This document shows, one piece after another, positions 354 through 15,361 of a DNA stretch of 64,000 nt. The notes beneath the pieces were generated by a model. That model was not told the DNA's origin and did no database searches. It saw only the letters and a list, made by a program, of their open reading frames with translations. The DNA is from an uncultured Candidatus Saccharibacteria bacterium. GTDB taxonomy: Bacteria > Patescibacteriota > Minisyncoccia > UBA6257. Every line of letters starts with the position of its first letter. Positions within the stretch are counted from its first letter, which is position 1. The stretch lies in NCBI GenBank assembly GCA_964618625.1, contig CAZUBI010000001.1, forward strand, positions 332,266 to 396,265. Reading direction: 5' to 3'. Both the position numbers and the translations under genes were made by a program.

Positions 354-354
354 T

Positions 355-374: not shown

Positions 375-442
375 GTCAATAGATTAAAAAATGAATAATA
401 ACTCCTATAAAATTTTCTATAACAAACTTTCGCATACTATTC

Positions 443-1820: not shown

Positions 1821-3657
1821 AAATTAAAATATACTCATGAACTTTATTCACGATAAAACTATAAGGATATCCTAGGGGTTTTAGATTATTATATTCTTTC
1901 TGTCTGTCCCAAATCGCTATATCTCGCTGCTTGAAACCTATGTCTTGTAATTTATTAGCCAAGTCAGAATGAAAAGGATAAAAGTTTGATTTTTTTCTGA
2001 TATCCATAACGATTACAGCACAGAACCCACCACTTTGTAATGAGATGTAGACGTTTTTAAATATATTCTGAAGAGATATTAAAAACTCCTCATAGTCGTG
2101 TAGATTTCCTAAATCTTGTTTACTATCTCCATAATTTACTATTTTTTTATTGTCCGCCGTTCTTCTTTCATTCAAGATATCCCAATATGGTGGTGAAGTA
2201 ATACATAACTTCACAGAATTTGGTTTAACGTGTTTACTTAAATTCAAAGCATCGTCAACGAATAATTCATATCTGCCTTTCTTATTAAAATCTTTATAAT
2301 GGGTAGAGAGGCGTTTTTTGCAAAGTTTAATATATTCTTTGTTGAGATCTATTCCTACTGCCTTTCTATCTTTTCTTAATGCAGCGATGACCACGCTACC
2401 GCTACCCACCATGGGATCAAGGACAATGGAAGTTTTTTTGCCAGTGTAAATATCTATAAGTCGTTCCGCTAAAGAAATTGGAAATATTGCTGGGTGATCA
2501 AGTGTTGACTCTTCCGAATTCTTTGAAATATCTCGCCAGATGCTAAACGAATTTTGCAACCACCTAGATCCATTCAGTCTATTAAACCTGTCTTTAAGTC
2601 CGTTTATACTAACAACATATAAACGTTCGTTTGTAGAATTAGGATCATTGCTGGTCTGGTTTATGCTCCTGTATCTTTTATGGCTCTGTTGATAAAGTTT
2701 TAAATCGCCCTTTTGAGATAGAATATTATTAATAGTGGGATCGGAAATTATGCCTTCGTTATTATAACTAAGAAGTATGTGGCGGGCTTTAGCTTTTTTG
2801 ATTAAATCTGCAAATACTTTTTGTGCTGTAGATTTTTGGCAGTAGAGCGATTTTTTTGATTCGTCAAAGTAAATACCGGTTTTGCTTTTCGGTAGTATCT
2901 TTACTTCTTTATCAAACCAACCTGTAGCAATTAGTTCAAGTAAAAAATAATTGGAAACGAATTGGCGAGTGTTGTAAGGTGGATCTAAATATAGAATATC
3001 CGTAGAAATTCTTCCTACAATATCATTTGCATCGGACTTAAATGCCTTATTAACTCTTTTGCTGGGAATAATTTCTGGTGGTGTTAGTGTTAGTGATTTC
3101 AAAGCCCTTTTGTCCCACTTTTTGAGAAAAGCACCGTAAGTGCCCGCAACATTTGATACAAGATTTACAGCTTCAATTAAAGCGGTAATCAAGTAGTAGT
3201 ATTCTAATTCTGTAATCTTGTTGTTATCTTTCCATTCCTCGATTTGAGTTCTAATTGTATCAATCTTCTTACCATTTTCATCAGAAAAATATTTTCTAAT
3301 TTTTTTAGTTCCGGTGGGACAATAATTTTTATATATAAATCCCTCTGTTGGTTTAAGCTTATTAAGGTAGTTTATAACTTTCTCATAAGTTTCTTTACCT
3401 TTATTATTATCAACTACTTTTTTTAACTTTCTAAGCTTGGGGTATTCATTTAATTCAATGTATGTTTTCGCTAAAGCGTAGCAAAATTCAAGATTGTCAT
3501 TAGCGATAACTGTGTAACCTAATTTCTTAAAATGTTTAGCCACGGCCGTAGTTCCAGTAAAAAGATCAAAAAACTTTGCGCCCTCGTAGAGATCGAGGTT
3601 CTTTGATGCCTCTTCAATAAATTTTAAGAGTTTTGTTTTACAGCCGTAGTATCTCAT
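1810..3657 (-). CDS. Fused dual DNA methyltransferase: an N-terminal Dam-like (D12 class) m6A domain plus a C-terminal N4/N6 (SPPY-type) domain
   Basis: N-terminal half: RYYGCK, FDLFTGTTAV and ILYLDPPYNT (Dam motifs I and IV). C-terminal half: HPAIFPISLAERLI...LDPMVGSGS (motifs X and I) and CITSPPYWD (motif IV). The protein is 615 aa. Confidence 0.8.
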   Translation of the reverse strand: MRYYGCKTKLLKFIEEASKNLDLYEGAKFFDLFTGTTAVAKHFKKLGYTVIANDNLEFCYALAKTYIELNEYPKLRKLKKVVDNNKGKETYEKVINYLNKLKPTEGFIYKNYCPTGTKKIRKYFSDENGKKIDTIRTQIEEWKDNNKITELEYYYLITALIEAVNLVSNVAGTYGAFLKKWDKRALKSLTLTPPEIIPSKRVNKAFKSDANDIVGRISTDILYLDPPYNTRQFVSNYFLLELIATGWFDKEVKILPKSKTGIYFDESKKSLYCQKSTAQKVFADLIKKAKARHILLSYNNEGIISDPTINNILSQKGDLKLYQQSHKRYRSINQTSNDPNSTNERLYVVSINGLKDRFNRLNGSRWLQNSFSIWRDISKNSEESTLDHPAIFPISLAERLIDIYTGKKTSIVLDPMVGSGSVVIAALRKDRKAVGIDLNKEYIKLCKKRLSTHYKDFNKKGRYELFVDDALNLSKHVKPNSVKLCITSPPYWDILNERRTADNKKIVNYGDSKQDLGNLHDYEEFLISLQNIFKNVYISLQSGGFCAVIVMDIRKKSNFYPFHSDLANKLQDIGFKQRDIAIWDRQKEYNNLKPLGYPYSFIVNKVHEYILIFEK

Positions 3658-3660
3658 AGC

Positions 3661-3840
3661 TTAGTTTTTCTTATTACTATTTTGGTCAATAAAGCAATCA
3701 ATGTCTGTAGCTTTTACTCTCCATTGACCTATCTTTGACGCATTTAATCTTTTCGCCTTGATATAGCGCATAATAGTGTGCTCACTAACGCGTAACTTTT
3801 GTACTATCTCTTTTATATTTAAGAAGTTTTCTTTAGCCAT
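3661..3840 (-). CDS. Small HTH DNA-binding protein of the excisionase/MerR-like HTH_17 type (59 aa), a candidate controller of the R-M operon
   Basis: This ORF is not in the supplied track because it is shorter than 60 aa. It translates as MAKENFLNIKEIVQKLRVSEHTIMRYIKAKRLNASKIGQWRVKATDIDCFIDQNSNKKN. It starts 3 nt after the methyltransferase gene. Confidence 0.5.
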   Translation of the reverse strand: MAKENFLNIKEIVQKLRVSEHTIMRYIKAKRLNASKIGQWRVKATDIDCFIDQNSNKKN

Positions 3841-3882
3841 ATGTCCTTTACATATACTTATACTTAATTCTATTATAGCAGT

Positions 3883-3934
3883 TTGTCATATTTTGTCACC
3901 CACAAGCCCTGTCACGTATTGTCATATTTTGTCA
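3883..3934. promoter_or_regulatory. Array of five TGTCA half-sites with 10-bp phasing, a putative operator in the promoter of the HTH and methyltransferase operon
   Basis: TGTCA occurs at 3884, 3894, 3910, 3920 and 3930. TTGTCATATTTTGTCA is repeated twice. Confidence 0.4.
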
Positions 3935-4048
3935 TTTAATATAAAATAAAATTACGACATGCTATTATTAAACATAAAGCATTCCAAGCTATGATTAAAT
4001 ATTTTCTTTACGCCCGCAAATCAACTTTATGGTCTATTTAAAATAAAA

Positions 4049-4081
4049 AAGGCTTTCCTAAGTCCATGTTAGGAAAGCCTT
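4049..4081. terminator. Bidirectional rho-independent terminator hairpin
   Basis: AAGGCTTTCCTAA-gtccatg-TTAGGAAAGCCTT forms a perfect 13-bp stem flanked by an A-run and a T-run. It lies just after the stop of the minus-strand gene 4099..4419. Confidence 0.55.
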
Positions 4082-4098
4082 GATTGTATTGTTTTCTT

Positions 4099-4419
4099 TT
4101 ATTTTTTCAATACCTCTTTCTTAAAAGCAAAAATCTTCTTAAGTCGCTGAATCTGACAGTATTTCTCCCCATCATATTCAACGATCGCCTTCTTGTATTT
4201 TGCCTGCAATGATGACGAAGGTATAAGAATAAAATTCTTTACCTTCTTTGTTTTTTTATCCATATCTCTCTTGTCATGTTCTTCACCAATCACCTGATCA
4301 GTTTCTTTCAAAAAATCTTCCCAAAATTCCCGTTCTTCTGGGCTCATTTTTGAAAGAGTAAACTCATTAAGAGGTACTCCTAACTGACTAGGCGACCTAA
4401 ATCCTCCGCACATACACAT
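4099..4419 (-). CDS. Hypothetical protein
   Basis: ORF of 106 aa in the track; the true start may be an internal Met (MSPEEREFWEDF). No recognisable motif. Confidence 0.3.
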   Translation of the reverse strand: MCMCGGFRSPSQLGVPLNEFTLSKMSPEEREFWEDFLKETDQVIGEEHDKRDMDKKTKKVKNFILIPSSSLQAKYKKAIVEYDGEKYCQIQRLKKIFAFKKEVLKK

Positions 4420-4455
4420 AATTTCATTCCTCCTTTTTTCTATTTATATCTAATC

Positions 4456-4944
4456 TTAAAAAGTAAATCTTTCTTCCATCTGTTTTACTGCAGGAGATCT
4501 ATAAACACCAGACATAATAATCTTCTCGTGCATTTCCATTAAAAATTTCGTTGGTGTAAGAAACATGGGATCTTCCTTTTTTCTTTCAGATATTATCCGT
4601 TGTGCTTCTACCAAAAAATCTTCTAAAATTCGTTTTTTTTCTTTTGAGATTTTTGAACCAGATGGATATAGTTCTTCTTCAAATTTCATAGATTCACTCT
4701 CTCCTATTTCTATAACCTCCATTATAACTTTTAGTATGACTGGCCTGGAATTCTTATTTATCATTTTTTTACAGTCTTCTACTTTTTCCAGCGCTTCCTC
4801 CCAAGAACAACCCACAATATCATAATGCCTAAAATCATTAATATTCTTCGGATCATTATGAACTGGGTAGATTATAAACCCCATTGCCATTGTCCCCGGT
4901 TCCTTAAAAGCCAATTCTCTCAAAATCTGCACTCCTGGTTTCAC
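4456..4944 (-). CDS. Hypothetical protein
   Basis: ORF of 162 aa with no recognisable motif. Confidence 0.3.
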   Translation of the reverse strand: MKPGVQILRELAFKEPGTMAMGFIIYPVHNDPKNINDFRHYDIVGCSWEEALEKVEDCKKMINKNSRPVILKVIMEVIEIGESESMKFEEELYPSGSKISKEKKRILEDFLVEAQRIISERKKEDPMFLTPTKFLMEMHEKIIMSGVYRSPAVKQMEERFTF

Positions 4945-4970
4945 TTTCTTTAATCCTCCTTTTCAAATTT

Positions 4971-5168
4971 TTAATTTTTATCTTTCTTTTCATCCTTATT
5001 AATAGACAACAATGCTTCAATTAACCATTTACCTACAATAATAAAAATCAATATATTTCTATGATATTCCGACAACATAGGAACAAAACCTAACAAACTT
5101 AACACCAAAAATATCGTAATTGCAACATTGAAAATAATTCCCAATAAATACTTATTTGATTTTGTCAT
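4971..5168 (-). CDS. Small hydrophobic membrane protein (hypothetical)
   Basis: 65 aa with two predicted TM segments. Confidence 0.3.
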   Translation of the reverse strand: MTKSNKYLLGIIFNVAITIFLVLSLLGFVPMLSEYHRNILIFIIVGKWLIEALLSINKDEKKDKN

Positions 5169-5364
5169 ATTTTACCTCCTTTAATAAAATTTTTAATAAT
5201 ACACACCAGGAAACTGACTACTAATAAAGATAACAACCAATTTCCTTGTGTGTATCAGAAGATATTGTTTTTCAAAGAACTAAAAATACCCTAATTATAG
5301 GATATTATAAACATAACATATTTAATCGTAAAGGTCAACTCCGAAAACTAAGCGATGCTAGAAT

Positions 5365-5916
5365 CTACTGAACCAATTTCTTATATATTTTATAAGCTGT
5401 CATCGTTCCGTTTATAGCTCGATGAGGCATTGGCTCTTCTGGGACTCCAAGTCTCTTTGCCGCTTCATTCAAACTAAATTTTTCACAGCTTGAGTTTCGA
5501 AGCTTCATCCAAATCATGGTAAAAAGGTCAACGCGATGATGGTCCATCTGGTTTTTAATGCCAGTTTTCTTAAACGCTTCAAAAACAAAAGACCAATCAA
5601 AAGTCACATTGTGAGCGCAAAATATCGCGCCTTTTGTCTTTTCGCCATAGAGAGACATAGCTTCTTTAAGCGTTATGGCGTTTTTCCAATCAGTTTCATT
5701 ATATCCATTTAGCTTTAGCGCAAATTCATCTGCTGTTTCAATATGTTCAGGCTTTACCTTAATATCGAGAGTATCCAGAATCTCAAGACTTTGTTGATTG
5801 ATTACAACCAATCCGATTTCAATAATCTCTTGAATTGCGAAATCAAGACCAGTAGTTTCAACGTCAGTAATAGCAATTGGTCTTTCAAAAATATGGGTTG
5901 TATGTTCTTGCTTCAT
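5365..5916 (-). CDS. DEDDh 3'-5' exonuclease (DnaQ/epsilon-like)
   Basis: Exo I motif ITDVETTGLD, Exo II motif HNVTFDWSFV and Exo III motif HRAINGTMTAYKIY are present; 183 aa. Confidence 0.7.
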   Translation of the reverse strand: MKQEHTTHIFERPIAITDVETTGLDFAIQEIIEIGLVVINQQSLEILDTLDIKVKPEHIETADEFALKLNGYNETDWKNAITLKEAMSLYGEKTKGAIFCAHNVTFDWSFVFEAFKKTGIKNQMDHHRVDLFTMIWMKLRNSSCEKFSLNEAAKRLGVPEEPMPHRAINGTMTAYKIYKKLVQ

Positions 5917-5943
5917 TTTATTAATATTAATTTAGAAAATAAA

Positions 5944-6414
5944 CTACAGATCTAATCTCATTTTTAATCTAAAATCAAAAAAACCATATTTTCTCCAGGC
6001 TTTAAGACCTATTTTATTTCTAGCATCAACAGTAAGCTGAATGTGCTTAACTTTCTTACTTTTAAACCATTTCAATAATTCTTTAAATATCTTCTTGCCA
6101 ATACCTTGATTTCTATATTCCTTTTCAATAAAAGCATCATAAATTACTCCAATTTTTTTTGGGGGAACATAGTTGGGAGCTTTTTCTATTACTCCCATAA
6201 AATATCCAATAACTTTTTCGTTTTCCTCAGCAATGATAATTTTTGTATTTCTATCTTTCATTAATTTCTCAAAATGATCCCTAATTTCTATATAATCATA
6301 ACCAGAACGATCTTTATAGTATTTATCAATAACTCGATGGTAGTCTACTATCTGTTTCACTGATTTAACTATAAATTGGATATCTTGTTTTGTAGCATTC
6401 CTTATTAACATCAT
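5944..6414 (-). CDS. GNAT family N-acetyltransferase
   Basis: GNAT motif A is present: YRNQGIGKKIFKELLKW...HIQLTVDARN. Confidence 0.7.
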   Translation of the reverse strand: MMLIRNATKQDIQFIVKSVKQIVDYHRVIDKYYKDRSGYDYIEIRDHFEKLMKDRNTKIIIAEENEKVIGYFMGVIEKAPNYVPPKKIGVIYDAFIEKEYRNQGIGKKIFKELLKWFKSKKVKHIQLTVDARNKIGLKAWRKYGFFDFRLKMRLDL

Positions 6415-6432
6415 ATACCTTTATTCTACCAA

Positions 6433-6455
6433 AAAATCGCCTCTTTGGCGATTTT
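6433..6455 (-). terminator. Terminator hairpin AAAATCGCC-tcttt-GGCGATTTT, with a T-run on the minus strand, after the 6608..7519 gene
   Basis: Inverted repeat read directly. A near-identical hairpin lies at 9705..9727. Confidence 0.45.
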
Positions 6456-6493
6456 GATGTATCTCGGTCTCTCGATAAAAAAGTTAGGCGGCT

Positions 6494-6518
6494 GGGGCTA
6501 TAGAACGATGTTGGAACC
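6494..6518. repeat. Intergenic tRNA-like motif GGGGCTATAGAACGATGTTGGAACC (copy A)
   Basis: A near-identical copy is at 7574..7598 and a related one at 9733..9754. The flank ggcgattttgatgta (6447..6461) is also repeated at 7555..7569. Confidence 0.4.
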
Positions 6519-6607
6519 TTTTTGACTCAATATAATAGCCTTTTAGGTGCTTAACAACATATTAAATTAAATAATAAAACCATTTATTTGCCTTCTTTCT
6601 TTTTCTT

Positions 6608-7519
6608 TCATTTTTTTATATTTATATAAGTAGTTAGACCGTCGTCGCCCATTTTCTTCTTACATTTATCACAATAGTCTTGATTATAGAGACTATAGGG
6701 ATAAGCAGAAATATTTGGAATAAAGCTTTTCCCACAACTGGAACATTTTTTAGACTTTACTCCTACAGTTACAGTATTGCTATTAGGATCAAATAAATAT
6801 GAATTAATGTCATAATCGCCAAGAGAACTTGCAGTTAGCGGAGTGCCATGAACTATCTGTGATCGTTCTTTTGTAATTTCCTTTATTTGTTTTTCTAAAT
6901 CATTAATTTTTTCCTTTAGTTCTTTTTCTACTTCTTTATTTTTGGCTACCACAAGTTCTTTTCTCTTATCAAGTAACTCAACCATAACTGATTGTCTAAC
7001 CTTTTTATACTTTTTGTCTACTTCTTTTATTTCTTTCCTTTCTTTTTCCCTATCTTGAATTTTTTCTTTCAATCCTGGAACAATATCGCCCCAATCCTCA
7101 AGACCAGAATTAATACTAAATTCGGCAGTTGAAATATGACGATTAATTTCTTCAAGGGCTCGTTTATATTCTTTTTTCTCCTTTATCTTTAAAAAATGAA
7201 CAATCCATACCCTTATATCTCGAAGCTGTTTGCTGACACCTTGAAGATTACGGAGTGCGGAAAGACCTTTCTTTTCAAGAATATTTTTACCGGACGCTCG
7301 ATCATATTCATCCTTGAAAAAAGCACCAGCGAAACCACCAAATAAACTTCCAATAATAGCCATCAGGTTTGAAAATTGAAGGTTATCCTTATAAGAGATT
7401 GACAAATATAAAGCAACACCTGTTAAAAAAACAAAAAACAAAAATCCCGAATTGAAAAAAGCACTGAGTATAATAGATCTATTTTTAATAAAATCTGAAT
7501 GTATCGACTTATCACTCAT
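6608..7519 (-). CDS. Membrane protein with two N-terminal TM helices, a long coiled coil and a C-terminal zinc ribbon (hypothetical)
   Basis: Hydrophobic N-terminus, a K/E-rich heptad region, and C-terminal CSSCGKS...CDKCKKK. Confidence 0.4.
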   Translation of the reverse strand: MSDKSIHSDFIKNRSIILSAFFNSGFLFFVFLTGVALYLSISYKDNLQFSNLMAIIGSLFGGFAGAFFKDEYDRASGKNILEKKGLSALRNLQGVSKQLRDIRVWIVHFLKIKEKKEYKRALEEINRHISTAEFSINSGLEDWGDIVPGLKEKIQDREKERKEIKEVDKKYKKVRQSVMVELLDKRKELVVAKNKEVEKELKEKINDLEKQIKEITKERSQIVHGTPLTASSLGDYDINSYLFDPNSNTVTVGVKSKKCSSCGKSFIPNISAYPYSLYNQDYCDKCKKKMGDDGLTTYINIKK

Positions 7520-7573
7520 ATTAAAATTTCTTAAGATTTAAACTTTTCGGACATAGGCGATTTTAATATACAT

Positions 7574-7598
7574 GGGGCTATGGAACGATGTTGGAACC
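7574..7598. repeat. Intergenic tRNA-like motif (copy B)
   Basis: GGGGCTATGGAACGATGTTGGAACC, preceded by ggcgattttaatata. Confidence 0.4.
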
Positions 7599-7622
7599 TA
7601 TTTGGCCTTAAATTAAGTTATA

Positions 7623-7892
7623 TTAAGATTTCTTTTTTGAATCAGGCAAATATTTATAATCTTCTTCAATTTCAGTCCGTTCACCAATAGGAAGATTTTT
7701 AATAAAATCCGGATGTTTTCCAAATAATTCTTTTAATATTTCGTCTGCTCTTCTCGATAGTTTTGGAACTACATAAACTACTTCTTCCTTAGCAACTTCG
7801 CCTTCTTTCAACTTATGCACCTTCTTTACTTCAGTAATTAATTCTTTATATTCTTTATATAATTCCTCGGGTTCTTGTTTTTTATTTTCCAT
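7623..7892 (-). CDS. Hypothetical protein, last gene of the SMODS/SLATT operon
   Basis: 89 aa, same strand, 36 nt downstream of the SLATT gene. Confidence 0.3.
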   Translation of the reverse strand: MENKKQEPEELYKEYKELITEVKKVHKLKEGEVAKEEVVYVVPKLSRRADEILKELFGKHPDFIKNLPIGERTEIEEDYKYLPDSKKKS

Positions 7893-7928
7893 ATTTATAA
7901 ATTTTATTTTTATTTTTTTATTTTGGAA

Positions 7929-8444
7929 TTATTCTACTTTGTATTGTGCCTCTCCATCTTTAATACCTTCTTTAGCTTTAAGAAAAGCCCACTTCGGAAT
8001 TTGTGGTGATTTATTATTCAACTTATCTCGTTCTGTGCATAGAGTCTTTAGATTTTCCAGCAAGCTCTCATCTGTTTCTAAATCTACATCGATTTCACCA
8101 AAAATCCGAGAGCGATTTCTAAGATTATTATAGCGATTTCCTGCATTGTGATGAGTAATTGCTTTTTCGTTAGGATTTATGAATGTTGAAACAGCACTAG
8201 TTGTAGAAACAATAATTGCTAAAAGCCCAGCAACAATTTGATGATTATTAAATTGAGACAAGGCAGAAGCCCCTGCGATTGCTGCCATTATTGAAACAGA
8301 TACACCAATCCATAAATGGAAACTTGCCCAAGATTGAGCAGCATAAAAATGTCCCTTGGAGGAATATAAAGAATCTTCTTCTATTCTTTTTGCTTCTTTT
8401 ATTATTTTTTCCTTAGTTTCCATATACTGGGAATTTATTTCCAA
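7929..8444 (-). CDS. SLATT-like two-TM effector protein
   Basis: 171 aa: an N-terminal helix, two TM helices (SFHLWIGVSVSIMAAIAGASAL and IVAGLLAIIVSTTSAVSTFI) and a C-terminal region HHNAGNRYNNLRNRSRIF. It overlaps the upstream nucleotidyltransferase gene by 32 nt. Confidence 0.45.
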   Translation of the reverse strand: MEINSQYMETKEKIIKEAKRIEEDSLYSSKGHFYAAQSWASFHLWIGVSVSIMAAIAGASALSQFNNHQIVAGLLAIIVSTTSAVSTFINPNEKAITHHNAGNRYNNLRNRSRIFGEIDVDLETDESLLENLKTLCTERDKLNNKSPQIPKWAFLKAKEGIKDGEAQYKVE

Positions 8445-9279
8445 AAATTTGTCTCCATAAATTTATCGCTTTTTCATGATCATTGCTGTCCCCATAAGTA
8501 TAGTACCATGCATCTCGTGCTTTATCTCTCGCTGTTTCAAGCCTCTTTACTGCTTCATTTCGCTTATTGTAATCAAGATAGTTGTCAATATAATCTCCTT
8601 CATGCCAAAAAGATAATTTTACCAATTCCATAGCCTTGTCGAAATATTGAAAGATATTCCACGGATAATCAGACAATTTGCCACTAAAAATTTTCAATGC
8701 AATAACCTCAATATGAAATGATTGAAGAAATGAGCTATGCTGGTGATTCCACCATTTTATCATTTTTACAATTCTCTTAAAGAATTCACCGCATACCTTA
8801 TTTTTATCGCTCATTGCCGTAGAGTGTTTACGTGGCCTTGATTGAATCCATGTTTCATTATTCATGTCTGGAACACTATAATAATTTACACTACCATCAT
8901 TGTTCGTAGTGCGAGATACTGGAACAATATCTACATTAGGCCATGTTTTGTAATGAAGTGTTACGGCTTGTCCATTCTTGCGAACATTCGTTTTATACCC
9001 TGCAAGTGTATCACGAACATTTTGGAGTATTTGAGAAGGTTTCTTGTTTTCTATATGTTTACCATAATGCAAAACTACAATCACATCAAGATCAGCATAT
9101 CCTTTTACTGCCGTATATCTAGGAATGGAACCAGAAGTAAATGCCTCAATTATTGTGAAGTCATTTTCTAATGATGATATAATATCGTCTTTTCTTTTGT
9201 TTGCTATATCACGATGATTTCCTGTTAGCTCTATATTTTCTCGGAATTTATCAAAAGATACTGGTACAGTATAAGGCAT
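8413..9279 (-). CDS. SMODS / CD-NTase-like nucleotidyltransferase
   Basis: GS...[DE]h[DE]h motif: TSGSIPRYTAVKGYADLDVIVVL. A third acidic residue is in NVDIVPV. 288 aa. Confidence 0.6.
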   Translation of the reverse strand: MPYTVPVSFDKFRENIELTGNHRDIANKRKDDIISSLENDFTIIEAFTSGSIPRYTAVKGYADLDVIVVLHYGKHIENKKPSQILQNVRDTLAGYKTNVRKNGQAVTLHYKTWPNVDIVPVSRTTNNDGSVNYYSVPDMNNETWIQSRPRKHSTAMSDKNKVCGEFFKRIVKMIKWWNHQHSSFLQSFHIEVIALKIFSGKLSDYPWNIFQYFDKAMELVKLSFWHEGDYIDNYLDYNKRNEAVKRLETARDKARDAWYYTYGDSNDHEKAINLWRQIFGNKFPVYGN

Positions 9280-9338
9280 ATTTTTATTTTAATTTTTAAA
9301 TTAATTTTTCGACCTTTTTAATTTTTTCTTTCATAGAT

Positions 9339-9650
9339 TCATTTATTTTGCTCTTTCTTCGCTGAATTAAAAATATTAGCTTCTATCTTTTTCATTATTT
9401 TTCCGCTAATAGATATATAAACAATAAAAGATAAAACAATTGTTGTGATTCCAGCTATCCAAGAAAAAATAAAAAACGTAGCAATAATTAATATCACCCC
9501 TAAAATAATAAGAGAATTATTCCAAATTAAAGCATTTGGTTTTTTAGATAGAATCTCCTTGGACCAAGTATTATTAACAGCAATGTAGGTAATAATCAAC
9601 ATTAATCCTAGCAATAGTAAATAGAAAATGTTTCCAAAAAATTCAAACAT
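9339..9650 (-). CDS. Hypothetical membrane protein with three TM helices
   Basis: 103 aa, strongly hydrophobic. Confidence 0.35.
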   Translation of the reverse strand: MFEFFGNIFYLLLLGLMLIITYIAVNNTWSKEILSKKPNALIWNNSLIILGVILIIATFFIFSWIAGITTIVLSFIVYISISGKIMKKIEANIFNSAKKEQNK

Positions 9651-9704
9651 AAATTTATTTTAACTTCTTTCACCACGCCTACTACCCATTGTTTATTTTA
9701 CCAA

Positions 9705-9727
9705 AAAATCGCCTCTCTGGCGATTCT
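9705..9727 (-). terminator. Terminator hairpin AAAATCGCC-tctct-GGCGATTCT after rpsP, a paralogue of the 6433..6455 hairpin
   Basis: Inverted repeat followed by a T-run on the minus strand. Confidence 0.45.
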
Positions 9728-9732
9728 AATTT

Positions 9733-9754
9733 GCTGGGGGACTAGGATTCGAAC
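9733..9754. repeat. tRNA 3'-end-like fragment (minus-strand reading GTTCGAATCCTAGTCCCCCAGC), copy C of the island-bounding motif
   Basis: On the minus strand it reads as a T-loop TTCGAAT, then a stem, then an acceptor-like TCCCCCA. No full tRNA is present. Confidence 0.35.
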
Positions 9755-9786
9755 TTTAAAATAAATAACTCAAAATAGTTATTTTT

Positions 9787-10347
9787 CTATTTTTCTCTGT
9801 TGCTTTTCTTTTTAACTTTTTCTTTGACCTCTTTTTCTTTTTTCTTTTCCTTTTTTGGCTCCTCTTTCTTTTCTTTAGCTTTTTCTTCAGGTTTTGCTTC
9901 AGCTGGCTTCTCTTCAGGTTTTGTCTCATCTTTTGTTTCTTCAACAGGTTTCTCTTCTACCTTTTCTTCAGATTCTTCCTCAGGCTTATCTTTGGTTGGT
10001 TTTTCTTCAATCTTCTCTTCAGTTGCTGGCACCTGCTCCATCTTTTCTCCAGTTTCAGCTTTTACTTTTTTCTCTTTTTTCTTTCTAATAGTAATGGGCC
10101 TTTTTTTGCCTTCAATAATTTTTGCTCGTATTAAAAGATTATAGCAAGAATCTGAAGGTTGAGCCCCTTGACTAATCCAATAAAGAATTCTTTCTTTTTT
10201 TAATTCAAATTTATTTATTCGCGGATCCCACCATCCTAAAATTTCTTTTGATTTGCCGCTATTAACAGCTATTTTAGAATCTACGGCTATTATCCGAAAA
10301 ATAAAATCCCTTTTTTTACCTTGTCTTTGAAATCGTAAAGTTAACAT
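9787..10347 (-). CDS. rpsP: 30S ribosomal protein S16 with a long Lys/Glu/Pro-rich C-terminal tail
   Basis: The N-terminus MLTLRFQRQGKKRDFIFRIIAVDS is a bS16 signature. The tail is about 100 aa of K/E/P low complexity. Confidence 0.85.
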   Translation of the reverse strand: MLTLRFQRQGKKRDFIFRIIAVDSKIAVNSGKSKEILGWWDPRINKFELKKERILYWISQGAQPSDSCYNLLIRAKIIEGKKRPITIRKKKEKKVKAETGEKMEQVPATEEKIEEKPTKDKPEEESEEKVEEKPVEETKDETKPEEKPAEAKPEEKAKEKKEEPKKEKKKEKEVKEKVKKKSNREK

Positions 10348-10387
10348 AGTTTATACATCCTAATTGAAAACATTTAAAAAGTCAATT

Positions 10388-13300
10388 TTATATATCCAAA
10401 TTTCTTACTTTTTGGGCATAAGCTTGAATGAATTTTTTCCTTGGTAATACTTCTTTACCCATTAAAATATCAAATAATCTATCTGCCTCTTCTGCGTCTT
10501 CAATAGTAACTTGCTTCAAAACCCTCTTCTCAGGATCCATAGTTGTATCCCATAATTGATCTGGGTTCATTTCTCCTAACCCTTTGTATCGTTGAATAGA
10601 AATTCCTTTCATTAATTCTTCGTTGCTGCCATCAGAAAGTTCTTCTTTTTCTACAGCTAAAATAGCTTCATCTTTACCTTCTTCAACTAATTTTAATTTT
10701 CGCACCTTGGATTTGGAAAGCTTTCCCTTTTTTTCTTCAACTTTGCCTTGTATTTTTTCCAATACTTTTTGTTTTTCTGCCTCTGTATAGGCGTAATGAA
10801 ATTCTTTGCCTTTTTGAATCCGATACAGAGGAGGTTGCGCAATATAAAGATATCCAGCTTCAATAATTGGTCTGAAGTAGCGGAAAAACAATGTTAAAAG
10901 CAAGCTGCGGATATGAGCACCATCAGTATTATGAAGTAAAAATCCACCAGTACCAGCAACAAAATTTTCATCTTTTTTAACGGCAAAATCATAAACAAAA
11001 GGAATCTCCGTTTTAATCTTTTTTATTGAAGTTATTGGCAAAAGAACTGAATCACCAATGCGAATCTTTTTATAGCTACTTCTTCTCCTATCAGCTTTAA
11101 CAAGATAATTTTCTAATGCTTTGCTCCTCTTGTGATTTTTCCAAACATCTTTTAATCTCTCCAATTGACTAATTCCTTTAACCGAGATAAGACGTCCTGG
11201 ATAATTACTTCTTATCATTACCCCGTCTTTGCGCAGATGGTCTTTTGAAAATCGCATAGTACTTTCAGGAAAAATGCCAAGTTGGCGAAATAGCAAAACA
11301 ATACCGTCTGATAAATTTTCTGAGGCAGTGGTAAAAGTTAATTTTACATCTAATTTCTCTTTACAAGATTTTACAACAATACTTCCATCGCTTTCTAAGT
11401 AACCACGTAGGAAAGCTTGTTGAATTTTTGGATTGACACTAAAAATTTCCTCTGGAACAAACTTTTCATATGATTTCTTTCCCAAAAGCCCTAAAGATTG
11501 AAGGATTAATTTAAATTCATATGAATGAAATACTAATTGATTGTTGTTATCATTTCTTTTATCTATGAATGCTTTTGCTCCTAAAACATTATCTATGGCC
11601 TTAATAAGTTCTGGGCTATACAATTTTTTGTCTCTTCCTAAAGATAAAATAAAACGATTAGGGTTCTTTTTTTGAGACGCAAAACAACCATCGCCAATAT
11701 AAAAACCTAAGAGATAAGCAAAATCTTCATTAAGGTCAAATGCAACTTTGAGTTTTCGGGTGTGATTTTTAAAATAATACTCAATAGCATCGCTAGTTTC
11801 CAAACACGAAGATAAAGGAATGTATGCCGAAGCGTTTTTTAAAACTTTTTTTTCTTCTAAATTCAATCCCGTAAGATACTCTTTAAAAATTTTATAACGA
11901 GGCATAACATTATCAATCTTCAACTCCCATTGCTCTAATACTGTAGTATAAACTCCAATAGCTACCCCCAATCTTTTTCTCGATATTCCTTTTCCCTGAC
12001 GCCTTAATTGAAGTTTTTGCCAGTATTTAGAACTAATATCAATCCAAGCATCATTAGGAATAAACTTCATCTTTGAAGCCAGAACTTTTATTTGAATATT
12101 TTTTGCTTCTTCAGAATGTTTTAAAAGCGGGCTGATATCTATTTTTATCTTTTGATTTAACCGAGACATTGAAGCAGGAAAAACAATTCTGTCGCCAATC
12201 TTTAATTTTGTAGTTGGTACTGTGATAAAATTTCCATAACGATAAACAAACACATTATGGCATGAGGTTATTTTCATCTTATATCCATAGCGAGTTTTTA
12301 TCTCATAAAGGCTGCCTCTTAATGGATGACGTATTGTTTTTTCAATATCTCTTAAAGAAAAAGTTTTTTTGTCTAAATCACAAGCAAAAACCTGATATCT
12401 TTCTGTATCCTGACATTGGTTTTCTATAAATTCACCTGTTTTTACTAATTTTAATCTTTGTTGTTGTTTATCAAAAACAAAAATTGGCGTATCATAAGCC
12501 ACGCTATCAGCGTCAGTCATTATGACAATCTTATGATAACGAAGTTTATCAATATTAAAATCTTCACTTATTGCTGTTCCCAAAGCCACAATTAAAGCCT
12601 TTATTTCTTCGGAAGCCATCATTCTGTCAAAGCGACTTTTTTCTACATTCAAAATCTTGCCTTTTAAAGGGAGAATTGCTTGTGTGTTTCTGTTTCTCCC
12701 CATTTTTGAGCTATTATGAACAAATATACCACTTGATAACGCAAAATTATGTGTCCCTGGAACTTCTATATCGTAAACATCTATCTTTTCCTGTAATAGA
12801 ATTATTGATTTAATTCGATGATTATAATTAACGACTGCCTCATGTAATTTTTTCTCATCCCCTGCAAAAAATCTTTGGCAAATTGTATTATACCTTATAA
12901 GAGTTTTATCGTTTGTATTTTTTCTAATTAAATTATAAGAATCTTTATTAATTTTATTCTCCTTTTGATAAATTTCATACAAAACCTCTATGCATCTTCT
13001 TAGATATGTTTTGTTATAAGAAATTATCCTTTTTTTTCTAAATTCATCTGTCCATTGTTTTTTAGTCATTTCGGATCGCCAGTTTCTTAAATTTAAATTA
13101 TCCCATTGTTTCTTTGCTAATTCCGAATATTCCTTTTTCTTATCTGGATGATTTTCAAAGTATTCTTTAGTTCTTTTAGATTGTTTCTCTCTATTTTGCC
13201 AATCAGCCCAATATCTTTTTTGGGACTGATCAAGAATCTTTTTGCTTTTTGCCCTATATTCTGCATTGTTATTATAAAACTCCAAAAATTTTTGAGCCAT

Positions 13301-15361
13301 ATAGTTTTTGTACTCCTCGTTCTGCCATTGTTTCTTTGCCCTTTTGCTTAGCATCTTTTTCATCTCAGGCGTAGACATAATTTTTCTAATCTTTTCTCTA
13401 TACTCGATTGATTTGTGTGCTTGTCTGGCTTTTTCTATTACATCGGGGCGACGCAGAGTATGTTCTATATAATCATAATGGAGGTTCATATGCTGTTTGT
13501 AAGAAAATCGCTGAATGTTTATTGGATTATTATTTAATTTATTAAAATCTAAATGATGACGATGTTTTCCATCAGAAACTGAATAAATACCATTTTCAAG
13601 ATTAAATATATCAGCCAATATATGGGTATACATCCATTTCCTGGCTTTAGGGTCAAAGACCATTTCGTAACCATCTAAACCATATTTTCCTTGCCTCTTT
13701 GACACTTCTCGATAAAGAGGAGCAATGCTGTGTTGAGGAGTCAACTGAATAGCGGAAATATAACTACCATCAACTAATCTAAACCGATGATCAGGAGTAC
13801 AAATTAATTCCTCTCCATTGTCTAAAATAATTTTAATAACTTTTGTATTCTTTTTAGTCATCCTCGGGTCTAATATGGAAGCAATACCAATGTGTCCATT
13901 ATTCTGTATGGTGTAACAAAAATTTTTCTTGCCCTGCTTGTATTCTTTAATTAATGCTTTAAAAGAAAGATTACGTCCATCAGTTAATGCAATCTCTGTA
14001 TCTCCACTCCAACACCCGCCGGCAGAATCGCCCTCAACTATAAACAATTCTGATTCTTCTGCATTTTTTGAAATACAATCAGCTAATTTTCCAGGTAAAG
14101 TCATTCCTTCTAAAACCCCTTTTCTAAGAATATTCTCTCGAGCTTTTTTGGCAGCTTGTCGGGCTCGAGCGCTTAATAAAGATTTTTCAAGAATCCTTTT
14201 GGCGTCTTCCTTGTTGGCTTCTAAAAACTCTTTAAAGTTTTCCCCCACAACTTGTTCTACGGCAGTTCGCGCTTCTGGATTTCCTAATTTTGCTTTTGTT
14301 TGCCCTTCAAATTGAGGCTCTCTTAATTTTACACTGACTACGGTCACTAATCCTTCGCGAGTGTCTTCTCCACTAAAACCAATATCCCCATTTTTAAATA
14401 TTCCCTGCTCTTTGGCATAATCGTTTAAAGTTCTGGTTAATGCTGATCGAAAACCAGTCAAATGCATTCCTCCTTCTGGAGTATGAATATTATTAGCAAA
14501 AGCTTTTTCTGTACTCTCAGAATCATCGGTATAAAGCAAGGCAACCTCAACTAAAATTCCTTCTTTCTCTTGCTTGACATAAAAAATATTATTAGTTAAA
14601 CAATGAGCAGTTCTTGCCAAATATTGAACTAAAGTAATAATTCCGCTTTCAAAATAAAAAGTATAAGAAGGAAGAAGAGCGCTTTCTCTATTATCTTCAA
14701 ATTTAATTGTAGTACCTGATGTGAGATATGCCTGTTGTCTTAAATGATCAAGAATCTTTTTTGTATCAAACTTAATTTCTTTAAAGATTTCCGGATCTGG
14801 CTCAAAAATGATTTTTGTTCCAGATTTTTCGCATTTGCCTATTTTTTTAAGTTTTGTCTTTGGTTTTCCTCGATTATATTCTTGGCTATATAACATTCCA
14901 TCACGGCAGATTTCTGCTTGTAAATATTCTGAAAGGGCATTCACAACTGAAATCCCTACGCCGTGCAATCCTCCAGCTACTTTATAGGATTTTCCTCCAA
15001 ATTTTCCACCAGCATGCAAAGTACACATTACAGTTTCCAATGCTGATTTTTTCGTCTTTTTATGAATGTCCACAGGAATTCCTCTTCCATCATCTGTTAC
15101 AGCCACTTTATTTTCTTTCAATATCTGTACTTTAATATTTTTGGCATAACCACCCATTGCTTCGTCAATCGAATTATCTACACATTCCCAAATTAAATGA
15201 TGCAAGCCCTCGGGACCAGTAGATCCAATATACATACCAGGTCTTTTTCGAACCGGGTCCAATCCTTCTAAGACATAAATATCTTTAGCTGTGTAGGAAT
15301 TCTCCTCTATATTATTAAGAGAATCTTTAACTTTTTTTGTTTTTTTTACAGGTTTAATCAT
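10388..15361 (-). CDS. gyrB: DNA gyrase subunit B precursor containing two inteins
   Basis: GHKL ATPase N-terminus, the EGDSAGG motif, and IMTDAD...DGAHIRSLLLTLFFR. The mature length would be about 697 aa. The two inteins are 434 aa and 526 aa. Confidence 0.9.
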   Translation of the reverse strand: MIKPVKKTKKVKDSLNNIEENSYTAKDIYVLEGLDPVRKRPGMYIGSTGPEGLHHLIWECVDNSIDEAMGGYAKNIKVQILKENKVAVTDDGRGIPVDIHKKTKKSALETVMCTLHAGGKFGGKSYKVAGGLHGVGISVVNALSEYLQAEICRDGMLYSQEYNRGKPKTKLKKIGKCEKSGTKIIFEPDPEIFKEIKFDTKKILDHLRQQAYLTSGTTIKFEDNRESALLPSYTFYFESGIITLVQYLARTAHCLTNNIFYVKQEKEGILVEVALLYTDDSESTEKAFANNIHTPEGGMHLTGFRSALTRTLNDYAKEQGIFKNGDIGFSGEDTREGLVTVVSVKLREPQFEGQTKAKLGNPEARTAVEQVVGENFKEFLEANKEDAKRILEKSLLSARARQAAKKARENILRKGVLEGMTLPGKLADCISKNAEESELFIVEGDSAGGCWSGDTEIALTDGRNLSFKALIKEYKQGKKNFCYTIQNNGHIGIASILDPRMTKKNTKVIKIILDNGEELICTPDHRFRLVDGSYISAIQLTPQHSIAPLYREVSKRQGKYGLDGYEMVFDPKARKWMYTHILADIFNLENGIYSVSDGKHRHHLDFNKLNNNPINIQRFSYKQHMNLHYDYIEHTLRRPDVIEKARQAHKSIEYREKIRKIMSTPEMKKMLSKRAKKQWQNEEYKNYMAQKFLEFYNNNAEYRAKSKKILDQSQKRYWADWQNREKQSKRTKEYFENHPDKKKEYSELAKKQWDNLNLRNWRSEMTKKQWTDEFRKKRIISYNKTYLRRCIEVLYEIYQKENKINKDSYNLIRKNTNDKTLIRYNTICQRFFAGDEKKLHEAVVNYNHRIKSIILLQEKIDVYDIEVPGTHNFALSSGIFVHNSSKMGRNRNTQAILPLKGKILNVEKSRFDRMMASEEIKALIVALGTAISEDFNIDKLRYHKIVIMTDADSVAYDTPIFVFDKQQQRLKLVKTGEFIENQCQDTERYQVFACDLDKKTFSLRDIEKTIRHPLRGSLYEIKTRYGYKMKITSCHNVFVYRYGNFITVPTTKLKIGDRIVFPASMSRLNQKIKIDISPLLKHSEEAKNIQIKVLASKMKFIPNDAWIDISSKYWQKLQLRRQGKGISRKRLGVAIGVYTTVLEQWELKIDNVMPRYKIFKEYLTGLNLEEKKVLKNASAYIPLSSCLETSDAIEYYFKNHTRKLKVAFDLNEDFAYLLGFYIGDGCFASQKKNPNRFILSLGRDKKLYSPELIKAIDNVLGAKAFIDKRNDNNNQLVFHSYEFKLILQSLGLLGKKSYEKFVPEEIFSVNPKIQQAFLRGYLESDGSIVVKSCKEKLDVKLTFTTASENLSDGIVLLFRQLGIFPESTMRFSKDHLRKDGVMIRSNYPGRLISVKGISQLERLKDVWKNHKRSKALENYLVKADRRRSSYKKIRIGDSVLLPITSIKKIKTEIPFVYDFAVKKDENFVAGTGGFLLHNTDGAHIRSLLLTLFFRYFRPIIEAGYLYIAQPPLYRIQKGKEFHYAYTEAEKQKVLEKIQGKVEEKKGKLSKSKVRKLKLVEEGKDEAILAVEKEELSDGSNEELMKGISIQRYKGLGEMNPDQLWDTTMDPEKRVLKQVTIEDAEEADRLFDILMGKEVLPRKKFIQAYAQKVRNLDI
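10928..12505 (-). mobile_element. gyrB intein 2 (526 aa) with a LAGLIDADG homing endonuclease domain, inserted in TDAD|(V)DG
   Basis: It starts SVAYDT and ends FLLHN, followed by T+1. The LAGLIDADG motifs FAYLLGFYIGDGCF and FLRGYLESDGSI keep the catalytic Asp. Confidence 0.75.
12713..14014 (-). mobile_element. gyrB intein 1 (434 aa) with an HNH-type homing endonuclease domain, inserted after EGDSAGG
   Basis: It starts CWSGDTEIAL and ends FVHN, followed by S+1. The TPDHRF block B is present. The HNH region is GKHRHHLDFNKLNNNPINIQ...QHMNLH. Confidence 0.7.

Follow-up and report, generated by a model that had tools for sequence, protein, structure and literature searches.

Cassette arrays with a tRNA-Gln-like head site and a repeated 31-nt end site in a Candidatus Saccharibacteria genome and in related metagenome contigs

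Integron cassettes are mostly promoterless, with expression from a shared promoter, and are strung together at attC sites. Clusters of attC sites without an integrase are called CALINs, and we compared them along with sedentary chromosomal integrons. The pdif modules of Acinetobacter plasmids and IMEX are small modules without an integrase; they have short conserved sites and use a host recombinase encoded elsewhere. Sites of the dif type are 28-nt imperfect inverted repeats (11-6-11), and pdif sites alternate in orientation. Tycheposons of Prochlorococcus are integrative elements that target tRNA genes and form tandem arrays (bioRxiv 10.1101/2020.12.28.424599), and genomic islands of the Islander type also target tRNA genes (PMC4383910).

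We analysed a 64-kb stretch of DNA (the window) from a Candidatus Saccharibacteria genome of 533 kb. On the minus strand, the order of the locus is rpsP, site C, a four-gene cassette with a CBASS anti-phage system, site A2, a cassette with a 303-aa protein, site A1, a tRNA-Gln-type trailer, a terminator/promoter, a GNAT gene and RNase T. The features are as follows.

9787..10347, minus strand: rpsP, ribosomal protein S16 with a Lys/Glu-rich tail (Pfam Ribosomal_S16, 5e-13); conserved upstream flank of the array
9733..9754, minus strand: site C, array head, GTTCGAATCCTAGTCCCCCAGC, a 22-nt copy of the tRNA-Gln 3' end
9692..9732, minus strand: leader of cassette 1, CAAATTAG and then hairpin AATCGCC-AGAGA-GGCGATT with a T-run, overlapping an extended -10 (TGgTAAAAT)
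7623..9650, minus strand: cargo of cassette 1, type I CBASS and two small genes (Pfam, PADLOC), made up of the next four genes
9339-9650, minus strand: 103-aa membrane protein
8413-9279, minus strand: SMODS cyclase (Pfam SMODS, 4e-21; PADLOC cyclase, 1e-104)
7929-8444, minus strand: SLATT 2TM effector (Pfam SLATT_4, 3e-7; PADLOC 2TM effector, 4e-62)
7623-7892, minus strand: 89-aa protein
7573..7604, minus strand: site A2, cassette-end site CCAAATAGGTTCCAACATCGTTCCATAGCCCCA (repeat; nhmmer A model, E = 4.5e-13)
7520..7572, minus strand: leader of cassette 2, degenerate (three-copy alignment; repeat family D15)
6608..7519, minus strand: cargo of cassette 2, 303-aa protein without assigned function (ORF list)
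6493..6524, minus strand: site A1, cassette-end site CAAAAAGGTTCCAACATCGTTCTATAGCCCCA, then G (repeat; nhmmer A model, E = 6e-13)
6456..6492, minus strand: tRNA-Gln-type 3' trailer GCCGCCTAACTTTTTTATCGAGAGACCGAGATACATC, matching the tRNA-Gln flanks of related loci L087, L108 and L118
6420..6455, minus strand: hairpin AATCGCC-AAAGA-GGCGATT with a T-run and an overlapping extended -10 (TGgTAGAAT); promoter-like site with TG at 6451..6423
5944..6414, minus strand: GNAT acetyltransferase (Pfam Acetyltransf_1, 2e-15)
5365..5916, minus strand: RNase T-like exonuclease; downstream flank of the array, conserved at 88-91% identity in relatives

This gene content, with S16, a SMODS cyclase, a SLATT 2TM effector, a small membrane protein, a 303-aa coiled-coil protein and GNAT, agrees with an earlier note on the sequence. 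The cyclase and effector genes overlap by 32 nt (8413-8444), and a CD-NTase/SMODS cyclase adjoining a 2TM (SLATT) effector is the arrangement of type I CBASS. Domain searches gave only weak coiled-coil-type matches for the 303-aa protein, whereas an earlier reading had described an N-terminal membrane segment, a coiled coil and C-terminal Cys motifs. No homologue of it was found in related loci; its gene alone makes up a 1176-bp contig in seven Logan assemblies. The hairpin/-10 module at 6420..6455 precedes the start codon of GNAT by 9 nt. GNAT has no homologue in the related loci; the rpsP-RNase T junctions of relatives lack it, so it probably belongs to the inserted material.

The repeats of the locus are real and non-random. 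The hairpin AAAATCGCCTCTYTGGCGATT (6433-6453 and 9705-9725) has only these two matches in 64 kb at up to three mismatches (expected 0), and it is enclosed by a 39-nt direct repeat (6420-6458 and 9692-9730, 90% identical). Motif A, GGGGCTATRGAACGATGTTGGAACC, occurs at 6494-6518 and 7574-7598 (expected 0) and extends to a 32-nt repeat (6493-6524 and 7573-7604, 94% identical). The earlier note had given both the hairpin and motif A correctly in sequence and position. It had also put GGCGATTTT(G/A)AT(G/A)TA before both A copies; the element is indeed upstream of each, but at unequal distances (32 nt for A1, 3 nt for A2). Its count of three terminator hairpins has to be revised: in a three-copy alignment the second copy of the module lacks 29 nt and the left hairpin arm, which leaves two complete hairpins and half of a third. 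This second copy forms the leader of cassette 2: what is left of a tRNA-Gln-type trailer after the loss of 29 nt, with a single hairpin arm (7556-7570), the first one, 5' on the gene strand.

Site C, which the note had likened to a tRNA 3' end, matches the 3' end of real tRNA-Gln genes exactly. It covers the T-loop, the 3' strand of the T-stem and the 3' strand of the acceptor, and the remainder of the tRNA is absent. In IMG/VR there are 30 exact matches, located at the 3' end of tRNA-Gln genes called by ARAGORN; phage integrases adjoin this 22-mer in IMG/VR contigs. Site C is the sole significant match of the C model in the window (nhmmer, E = 7e-7). No intact tRNA was found at the locus, and an Rfam search of the locus gave no match. 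Profile searches of the whole window revealed no further A or C copies, leaving three sites, all at this one locus. The many copies in both orientations expected genome-wide of a dispersed repeat (REP/MITE-like) were not seen in the window or in relatives, and with two hairpin copies only, the window does not support the ubiquitous terminator family that the note had named as a refutation.

The trailer after A1 also stands 3' of intact tRNA-Gln genes in relatives, so it is a native flank at the distal end of the array; it compares as well with one class of continuation (type 2) behind A sites. The base after A2 is T instead of the usual G. Site C is 5'-truncated and has no adjacent tRNA, A2 is followed by T, and GNAT lacks an A site, so the local history was not a clean series of insertions.

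The synteny comparison proposed in the note was informative. In relatives, RNase T lies directly 3' of rpsP. The loci L055-L058 read rpsP, terminator hairpin and RNase T with nothing between, that is, an empty site. What follows rpsP varies from relative to relative, with different fillings in L001, L052, L055, L056, L105 and the window. A homologous hairpin follows the rpsP stop codon in L052, L055 and L058; relatives thus use such a hairpin as the terminator of rpsP, and elsewhere it is a frequent cassette leader. The gyrB-rpsP synteny is kept in relatives; in L052 and L058, about 10 kb separate dnaN from a conserved block that includes gyrB-rpsP, and by synteny the array is therefore probably origin-proximal and not at the terminus.

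We scanned JGI metagenomes with the A core and obtained at least 120 stretches. Among the matches listed, 122 loci were analysed, and they hold 221 copies. Site orientation is never mixed within a contig. Sites are spaced 318-4108 nt apart (median 858), almost all enclosed ORFs are co-oriented (138/142), and 65 of 99 intervals contain one ORF. A C-type site stands ahead of all A sites 47 times and after one in no case. The neighbours of head sites are tRNA genes and core genes: 18 C sites lie 15-55 nt past an intact tRNA-Ser and five are the end of an intact tRNA-Gln. Most heads follow tRNA-Ser and do not lie within tRNA-Gln. Several arrays end at comF and adjoin pilM. Arrays of the form C-then-(cassette-A)n are widespread in one CPR/Patescibacteria lineage; IMG/VR, INPHARED and PLSDB contain no copy of the A core. 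The core is located on the sense strand a median of 60 nt past stop codons, beside terminators. The 31-nt core is better conserved than the adjacent protein genes, and the near-invariance of 25 of its 31 positions is partly built into the search pattern.

Among the matches listed, we distinguished 145 complete cassettes in 104 families, with a median length of 886 nt and mostly one ORF. Their cargo is diverse and accessory, and it is mostly metabolic or without known function. The arrays are therefore not specific for defence, contrary to the suggestion in the note of a recombination hotspot for defence cassettes.

In pairs of contigs that differ by the presence or absence of a cassette, the same cassette follows C in one contig and A in another. 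Homology switches exactly past CCCCAG, with 6-9 nt common at the join, and the ends of shared segments accumulate at both edges of the motif. Seven of the cassette families have at least two different left neighbours, and five were found both after C and after A (145 complete cassettes). The swap of cassettes between C and A contexts, with the break at the shared CCCCAG, favours site-specific capture by an unlinked recombinase. Together with the empty site, the varied filling and the metagenome arrays, these exact junctions support the idea in the earlier note of att-like sites left by serial site-specific insertion or by a recombination hotspot. Its choice of hairpin plus tRNA-like motif as the boundary holds for the tRNA-like motif, which is the junction, but not for the hairpin, which belongs to the leader of the downstream cassette in about 1/4-1/3 of cassettes.

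The leaders are rich in predicted expression signals. TGnTAnAAT is present in 46% of leaders (3% in shuffles) and perfect-stem terminators in 33% (0.03% in shuffles). In the window, the minus-strand AATCGCC-N5-GGCGATT followed by TTTTTTGG has the form of an intrinsic terminator, at which termination is predicted, and the leader of cassette 1 has a predicted promoter-like site with TG (9723..9695). Judging from these motifs, leaders would work as terminators and promoters. The hairpin/promoter leader of the window type follows about 1/4 of the A sites in relatives, about 1/4 to 1/3 of junctions have a common 70-75-nt block of A plus leader, and most A sites have unrelated leaders downstream. 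The modules of A plus hairpin (31-75 nt) are long enough for occasional homologous exchange. The 32-nt A core itself has a fold of 0 kcal/mol and no dyad symmetry, and the sole hairpin near it is the perfect terminator stem of the optional leader. Upstream of the core, inverted matches are not enriched and no complementary partner was found. It would be unusual for tyrosine or serine recombinases to act on a core site with such asymmetry and lack of fold.

The arrays are integron-like, without integron sites and without an integrase gene nearby. As in integrons and CALINs, one distinct head site precedes short, mostly single-ORF, co-oriented cassettes that each end in a site; the end sites are near-identical along an array, the cassette boundaries are base-exact at the site edge, the highly diverse cargo is mostly accessory or without known function, and the same cassette is found in different positions and arrays. 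However, the A sites have neither the R''/R' boxes (RYYYAAC/GTTRRRY) nor the imperfect palindrome and single-strand fold of attC. The head copies the tRNA-Gln 3' end beside tRNA genes, whereas the integron head is attI next to intI. An IntI-like tyrosine recombinase, which a complete integron has, is absent from the window and from about 750 kb of array loci, and the cassettes here usually have their own predicted terminator and promoter.

Tycheposons and Islander-type islands resemble the arrays in integration at the 3' part of a tRNA gene, partial tRNA copies between units, same-site reinsertion that pushes older elements inward, and conserved positions in small streamlined genomes. However, those elements span several kb and carry an integrase with replication/excision genes, whereas the units here measure about 0.3-4 kb and encode no integrase. 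Their repeat is a copy of the target tRNA, but site A is not a tRNA copy, and the head here mimics tRNA-Gln yet is usually downstream of an intact tRNA-Ser. Such elements have the intact target tRNA at one end and a displaced copy of its 3' part at the other; here, five related arrays start at an intact tRNA-Gln, and the window has no intact tRNA. Xer-dependent modules are likewise small, free of an integrase and bounded by short conserved sites, but unlike dif, site A has no dyad symmetry and all its copies are direct, and the origin-proximal position suggested by L052 and L058 differs from the terminus.

The note had also proposed a search for an integrase with matching att, and none was found nearby. 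We used a profile for tyrosine recombinases and a crude motif for serine recombinases, and neither the window nor about 750 kb of contigs with arrays yielded a recombinase of any kind. No tyrosine-recombinase motif was present in the window or these array loci, an HMM built from 13 tyrosine integrases gave no match there at E ≤ 10, and none of the 145 complete cassettes encodes an integrase. No HUH-type or other transposase ORF was noticed in partial views of array cargo, and no circular cassette or excision junction was seen. The catalytic step is thus without a candidate enzyme.

We consider it rather probable that the locus is a short array of mobile cassettes shuffled by conservative site-specific recombination, with a recombinase that would be encoded elsewhere and act in trans. 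A cassette is a self-contained unit of a leader (often a terminator hairpin and an extended -10, about 10 nt from the start codon), one or a few co-oriented ORFs, and end site A, a conserved unstructured 31 nt, AAAAAGGTTCCAACATCGTTCCATAGCCCCA. Arrays start at C, either a copy of the last 22 nt of tRNA-Gln or a real tRNA-Gln gene end. Insertion, excision and shuffling may proceed by C x A or A x A recombination, and strand exchange may take place in the common CCCCAG at the 3' edge of the sites; the site would remain with the upstream DNA and the leader would move with the cassette. In the window, the array inserted between rpsP and RNase T has a type I CBASS cassette and the 303-aa cassette. 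The architecture, the exactness of the junctions, the exchange of cassettes between contexts and the empty site in relatives are observations; the recombination chemistry and its enzyme are proposals, as are the terminator and promoter roles of the leaders.

Other explanations can be weighed against these data. The A site with its leader (at most about 75 nt) could be portable homology, swapped by RecA or gene conversion after DNA uptake and kept because it provides terminators and promoters. This would suit the 70-75-nt blocks at some junctions, the 3.27-kb window insert between 39-nt, 90% identical direct repeats of the hairpin module, the failure to find a recombinase in the window and about 750 kb, and the arrays at comF and next to pilM, in a lineage with putative DNA uptake. 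We nevertheless regard it as unlikely: the C/A exchanges share CCCCAG(C) only (6-9 nt), far under the need of RecA, the unrelated leaders after most A sites leave homology on one side, such exchange requires neither the C-first order nor the single orientation, and the 31-nt core is better kept than the neighbouring protein genes. A purely regulatory or RNA role without gene movement, in which the motif marks transcript ends or processing points as a tRNA-like 3' tag or binds a protein as an operator, would agree with the position past stop codons on the sense strand beside terminators and with the likeness to a tRNA 3' end. Considering that the core has no predicted structure, upstream partner or Rfam match, and that exchange breakpoints exactly at the motif 3' edge and clustering in C-headed arrays would be left unexplained, we find this role scarcely credible.

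Two further explanations invoke mobile elements. The modules may be remnants of tandem tRNA-Gln islands or prophages that once had an integrase, the repeats being attR scars (displaced tRNA 3' fragments). The identity of site C, the five arrays beginning at an intact tRNA-Gln, the native tRNA-Gln trailer after A1, the partial tRNAs of tandem tycheposons and the phage integrases beside the same 22-mer in IMG/VR contigs all point this way. The idea is quite improbable, however, given tiny cassettes (median 886 nt, mostly one ORF) with exact ends and no tyrosine recombinase at E ≤ 10 among the 145 or in about 750 kb, a repeated unit that is site A and copies no tRNA end, heads mostly after tRNA-Ser, and an A core missing from the three phage and plasmid collections searched. 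Alternatively, an enzyme of the HUH/Y1 or IS91-like kind might insert cassettes by single-strand or one-ended transposition on the 3' side of a ...CCCCAG target; as every cassette brings this target again at its end, co-oriented tandem arrays would accumulate. A single orientation, a fixed short target regenerated at the right end, no inverted terminal repeats and, in many cassettes, a subterminal hairpin 8 nt in from the left end would fit. But site A, the right end, forms no hairpin, the left-end hairpin is missing from two thirds of cassettes, and no such transposase was noticed in the partial views of cargo, which makes this origin very improbable.

Returning to site-specific capture in trans, we suggest tentatively, as a possibility that we would not yet call probable, that the arrays form an undescribed gene-capture platform of CPR/Patescibacteria, with integron-like function from unrelated parts and a CCCCAG recombinase possibly of a new type. 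Its head site would derive from the tRNA-Gln 3' end and have been placed next to rpsP or to tRNA genes.

In the ultra-small CPR bacteria, whose genomes are tiny, the gain and loss of accessory genes is poorly understood. The signature C-(cassette-A)n marks hypervariable arrays in at least 120 metagenome contigs, in which single genes and small operons, for example a CBASS system, move as exact units. With or without the enzyme, the 31-nt motif can be used in practice as a probe to find the flexible gene pools of the lineage, and it explains assembly breaks at array loci. If a dedicated recombinase is found, it would offer a second, independent route to what integrons do, as well as a new site-specific recombination system whose site is short and defined. 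If the platform exists, genomes of about 0.5 Mb would receive accessory genes through it, defence systems among them.

We inspected the window from 5800 to 10400. The genes of the locus all lie on the minus strand, which is called the gene strand here:

9787-10347, minus strand: rpsP (ORF list and annotation searches)
between rpsP and the SMODS cyclase, minus strand: 103-aa membrane protein
8413-9279, minus strand: SMODS cyclase (PADLOC CBASS model, 1e-104)
7929-8444, minus strand: SLATT 2TM effector (PADLOC CBASS model, 4e-62)
listed after the SLATT effector, minus strand: 89-aa protein
6608-7519, minus strand: 303-aa coiled-coil protein
5944-6414, minus strand: GNAT protein
5365-5916, minus strand: RNase T-like exonuclease

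Because the cyclase and the effector match PADLOC CBASS models, the pair is a type I CBASS. Compositional anomaly was rejected as a mark of insertion, since GC is flat across the locus (0.27-0.34). Upstream of the locus, gyrB is split by intein sequence. The window gyrB (10388-15361, minus strand) has 1657 aa, with two interruptions relative to the intein-free 701-aa gyrB of the related locus L001, and matches Pfam Intein_splicing and, weakly, LAGLIDADG. Among the relatives, gyrB is intein-free with 697-703 aa in L001, L052 and L058, and a shorter interrupted form of 1223 aa is found in L055; in the same comparison, a 1310-nt insert of the window is missing from L105.

The earlier note had described three copies of a terminator hairpin joined to a tRNA-like motif (motif A). 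Pattern searches of the 64 kb found the hairpin exactly twice (6433-6453 and 9705-9725; expected 0) and motif A exactly twice (6494-6518 and 7574-7598), both where that note had placed them. The hairpin is contained in a 39-nt direct repeat (6420-6458 and 9692-9730, 90% identical), and the repeat of motif A extends to 32 nt at 94% identity. In a three-way alignment two of the hairpins proved complete, but the unit at A2, the second motif A site, retains only the right arm, and 29 nt are gone between hairpin and motif. Copy C (9733-9754) occurs once, and the suggestion that it reads on the minus strand like a tRNA 3' end was borne out, as its 22-mer GTTCGAATCCTAGTCCCCCAGC exactly matches real tRNA-Gln 3' ends. 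For the same reason, C as the 5' end of a plus-strand tmRNA was rejected. Profiles built from more than 90 A variants and 36 C variants found no further copies in the 64 kb; thus, at least within this stretch, the repeats do not belong to a genome-wide terminator family, the reading that the note had set against its own. On the gene strand, the hairpin AATCGCC-N5-GGCGATT with its T-run overlaps an extended -10 element (TGgTAAAAT or TGgTAGAAT) and is a predicted terminator.

The 22-mer has 30 exact matches in IMG/VR. Wherever ARAGORN calls a gene there, the match is a tRNA-Gln 3' end, and the other matches are bare fragments; at least 13 of the 30 viral loci also code for a tyrosine integrase. 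ARAGORN called no intact tRNA at the window locus and Rfam gave no match there. An intact or unusual tRNA or tmRNA at 5000-11000 was rejected because ARAGORN and Rfam (gathering threshold and E ≤ 10) were both empty. The window copy of C has no 5' T-stem strand; it is 32 nt past the rpsP stop codon, with no adjoining tRNA.

A fuzzy search found motif A many times in relatives, always on the gene strand and just past successive ORFs. The degenerate 25-mer of motif A was present in at least 120 stretches of JGI metagenomes and gave no match in IMG/VR; neither motif A nor the hairpin element matched PLSDB, INPHARED or IMG/VR. Where the hairpin follows A, the element reads AAAAAGGTTCCAACATCGTTCCATAGCCCCAG-CAAATTAG-hairpin-TTTTTTGGTAGAATA-ATG. 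We calculated array statistics over 122 loci (749 kb). They hold 221 A copies, up to 7 per contig, and orientation is never mixed within a contig. Sites are spaced 318-4108 nt apart (median 858), 138 of the 142 ORFs between them are co-oriented with the site, and 65 of 99 intervals contain one ORF. Median distances are 60 nt from the stop codon to the site and 76 nt from the site to the next ORF. Its core comprises 31 nt, from AAAAAG to CCCCA; G comes next in 118 of 162 copies, and the sequence diverges beyond. A degenerate second A copy upstream was rejected as a general part of the site, being significant in only about 10% of instances; where significant, it keeps a fixed 35-nt register.

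No contig has more than one C-type site (GGTTCGAATCCAcGTCCCCCAG); it is on the same strand as the A sites and, in the 122 loci, lies upstream of every A site (47 vs 0). It is thus the head of an array in which C is followed by cassettes that each end in A. In the tRNA-scanned loci, an intact tRNA-Ser (GCU, CGA or GGA) precedes 18 C sites at a distance of 15-55 nt, and at 5 heads the site is itself the 3' end of an intact tRNA-Gln. The lineage's own tRNA-Gln 3' end, GGTTCGAATCCAAGTCCCGCAGC, is one base off C. Behind A1, the first motif A site, the window has the trailer of intact tRNA-Gln genes (GTCTAACTTTTTTATCGAGAGACCGAGA...hairpin), which also follows some A sites elsewhere. Because this trailer matches the native tRNA-Gln flank, A1 and its trailer have the appearance of the native, distal end of an array seeded by tRNA-Gln. 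The base after A2 is T, the trailer behind it has a deletion and half a hairpin, and the GNAT gene has no A site of its own and is missing from the relatives' empty site. The local history of the window array is not clean.

Several heads vary. Those of L113 and L085, downstream of tRNA-Ser(GCU), read GGTTCGAATCCAAGTCCCAGC, two bases short of the usual GTCCCCCAGC, and that of L116, GGTTCCAATCCAAGACCCCCAT, looks hybrid, with an A-like start and a C-like end; such variants could help define which site positions matter. Directly upstream of tRNA-Ser(CGA), a 1120-nt insertion (L081, oriented, 3918-5038; likewise L086 and L178) carries a 350-aa LAGLIDADG homing-endonuclease ORF; L162 lacks it. Such a free-standing homing endonuclease next to an array head may influence recombination there.

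The earlier note had asked whether the locus downstream of rpsP is empty or differently filled in related genomes, and the relatives recovered via rpsP show both. L055-L058, whose rpsP is 88-93% identical, have a single hairpin of this family (AAATCGCC-N5-GGCGATTTTTT) behind rpsP, and RNase T is the next gene; this is the empty site. From rpsP to the next shared genes (HTH_3, TyrRS), the filling differs between L052-L054, L001/L002, L055, L056, L105 and the window. The gene before the head site is rpsP in the window, RNase T in L105 and, in L055/L056, one of 106 aa. No homologue of the window cassette proteins was found in any related locus. A second variable segment lies beyond RNase T, up to TyrRS (window 1-5364; L016 6451-7800), and also differs between relatives. 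In the window it encodes 65-, 162- and 106-aa proteins, an HTH_17 protein, a 615-aa D12/N6_N4 DNA methyltransferase, 298- and 158-aa proteins and an HTH_3 protein. It contains no A or C sites, and its history is different from that of the array.

The ends of segments common to several contigs cluster at both motif edges. The same cassette stands after A@3210 in L067 and after C in L074; C is joined in L163 to the sequence that follows the fourth A of L074, and in L085 to the sequence that follows A@3905 of L067; L070 has, after an A variant, the cassette that stands after C in L067. In each pair the homology switches immediately past CCCCAG, where the parental sites have only 6-9 nt in common. 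The 145 complete cassettes form 104 families at 85% identity, 7 of which stand beside more than one left neighbour, and 5 of which are found both after C and after A. These comparisons indicate that cassettes move as units, breaking at CCCCAG. In 7 Logan samples the module of the 303-aa protein is a separate 1176-bp contig. Contigs of Logan that match the window identically break off at 7577, 7601/6426, 6451, 9699 and 9738. These breaks were rejected as proof that cassettes vary locally: others interrupt genes (9415, 9310), and the A and hairpin modules have 31-mers or longer in common with copies in other contigs (e.g., L128), so that a k=31 graph would already break there. No circular cassette contigs were found.

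A head site, co-oriented site-ended cassettes, base-precise borders and the exchange of unlike sites point to conservative site-specific recombination, which would proceed with a 6-7-nt overlap at CCCCAG. The exchanging sites are non-identical, with CCCCAG alone in common, and RecA would not be expected to produce this architecture. Site A has neither a fold (0 kcal/mol) nor an inverted partner, and thus is neither attC nor dif-type. An integron attC was also rejected at A1, where GTTRRRY and RYYYAAC 7-mers occur nearby in the wrong order and at chance frequency. The earlier note had called for a search for a matching integrase, and none emerged, which counts against this mechanism: an HMM of 13 tyrosine integrases, taken from the viral loci carrying the tRNA-Gln 22-mer, matched neither the window nor the CPR loci at E ≤ 10. 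When ORFs in all six frames were screened by motif, tyrosine recombinases appeared only in two viral loci; a crude screen found no serine recombinases or transposases, and no recombinase is among the 25 most frequent families in the Pfam summaries. The recombinase, if dedicated, would be encoded elsewhere than in the array. Xer is likewise encoded elsewhere than the IMEX and pdif modules it serves; however, those modules use dif-type sites, unlike A.

The cargo comprises 355 protein clusters among 595 cassette ORFs, including HAD hydrolases, NUDIX, PNPOx, aldehyde dehydrogenase, deformylase, deaminases, NYN, reverse transcriptase, HNH and methyltransferases. The array flanks are core genes (DeoC, PfkB, ComF, PilM, ribosomal proteins). 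TGnTAnAAT is present in 46% of leaders, the starts of cassettes, vs 3% in shuffles, and perfect-stem terminators in 33% vs 0.03%; the median distance from the -10 element to ATG is 10.5 nt. This enrichment and the short distance suggest, as a prediction, insulated and nearly leaderless transcription units.

Longer leaders also occur. One recurrent 5' leader (window 5169-5364, L052 10700-10835) precedes a gene for a 65-67-aa protein. It contains a promoter-like TTGAC..TATAAT, a palindrome GATATCCT-N-AGGATATC, TTTTGTTCTTTGAAAA and a 16-bp hairpin (window 5246-5208), and Rfam gave only chance-level matches to it. The leader also stands after A sites in L056 (3530-3735), L067, L074, L079 and L082; in L056 a related form precedes a 60-aa gene. 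Leader and small gene travel together as a cassette. In L001 (10560-10650), L002 (10600-10700) and L055 (14400-14500), a conserved hairpin AACGGTGGGG...CCCCACCGTTTTTTT, with a repeat of its inner CAGGGCTCTG-like motif behind it, was seen upstream of a conserved gene pair of about 180 and 1150 aa (in L055, the larger protein has an LTD domain). It resembles a leader or attenuator RNA.

In the window the GC-skew sign switches at about 18900-19800, and left of this point every gene is on the minus strand. The rpsP of L052 and L058 has dnaN and a DciA-like gene about 10 kb upstream; thus, the array is probably near the replication origin, co-oriented with replication.

The nearest functional analogue is the integron or CALIN; however, this locus is without attC and IntI. 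In site origin, the nearest are tandem tRNA-targeting elements (e.g., tycheposons), but there is no element-borne integrase here and the repeated site does not reproduce the target tRNA. In the literature, of which our coverage was incomplete, we found no description of motif A or of integron-like arrays in CPR. There is a substantial chance, though less than even, that these arrays are an independent gene-capture platform with an undescribed recombinase.
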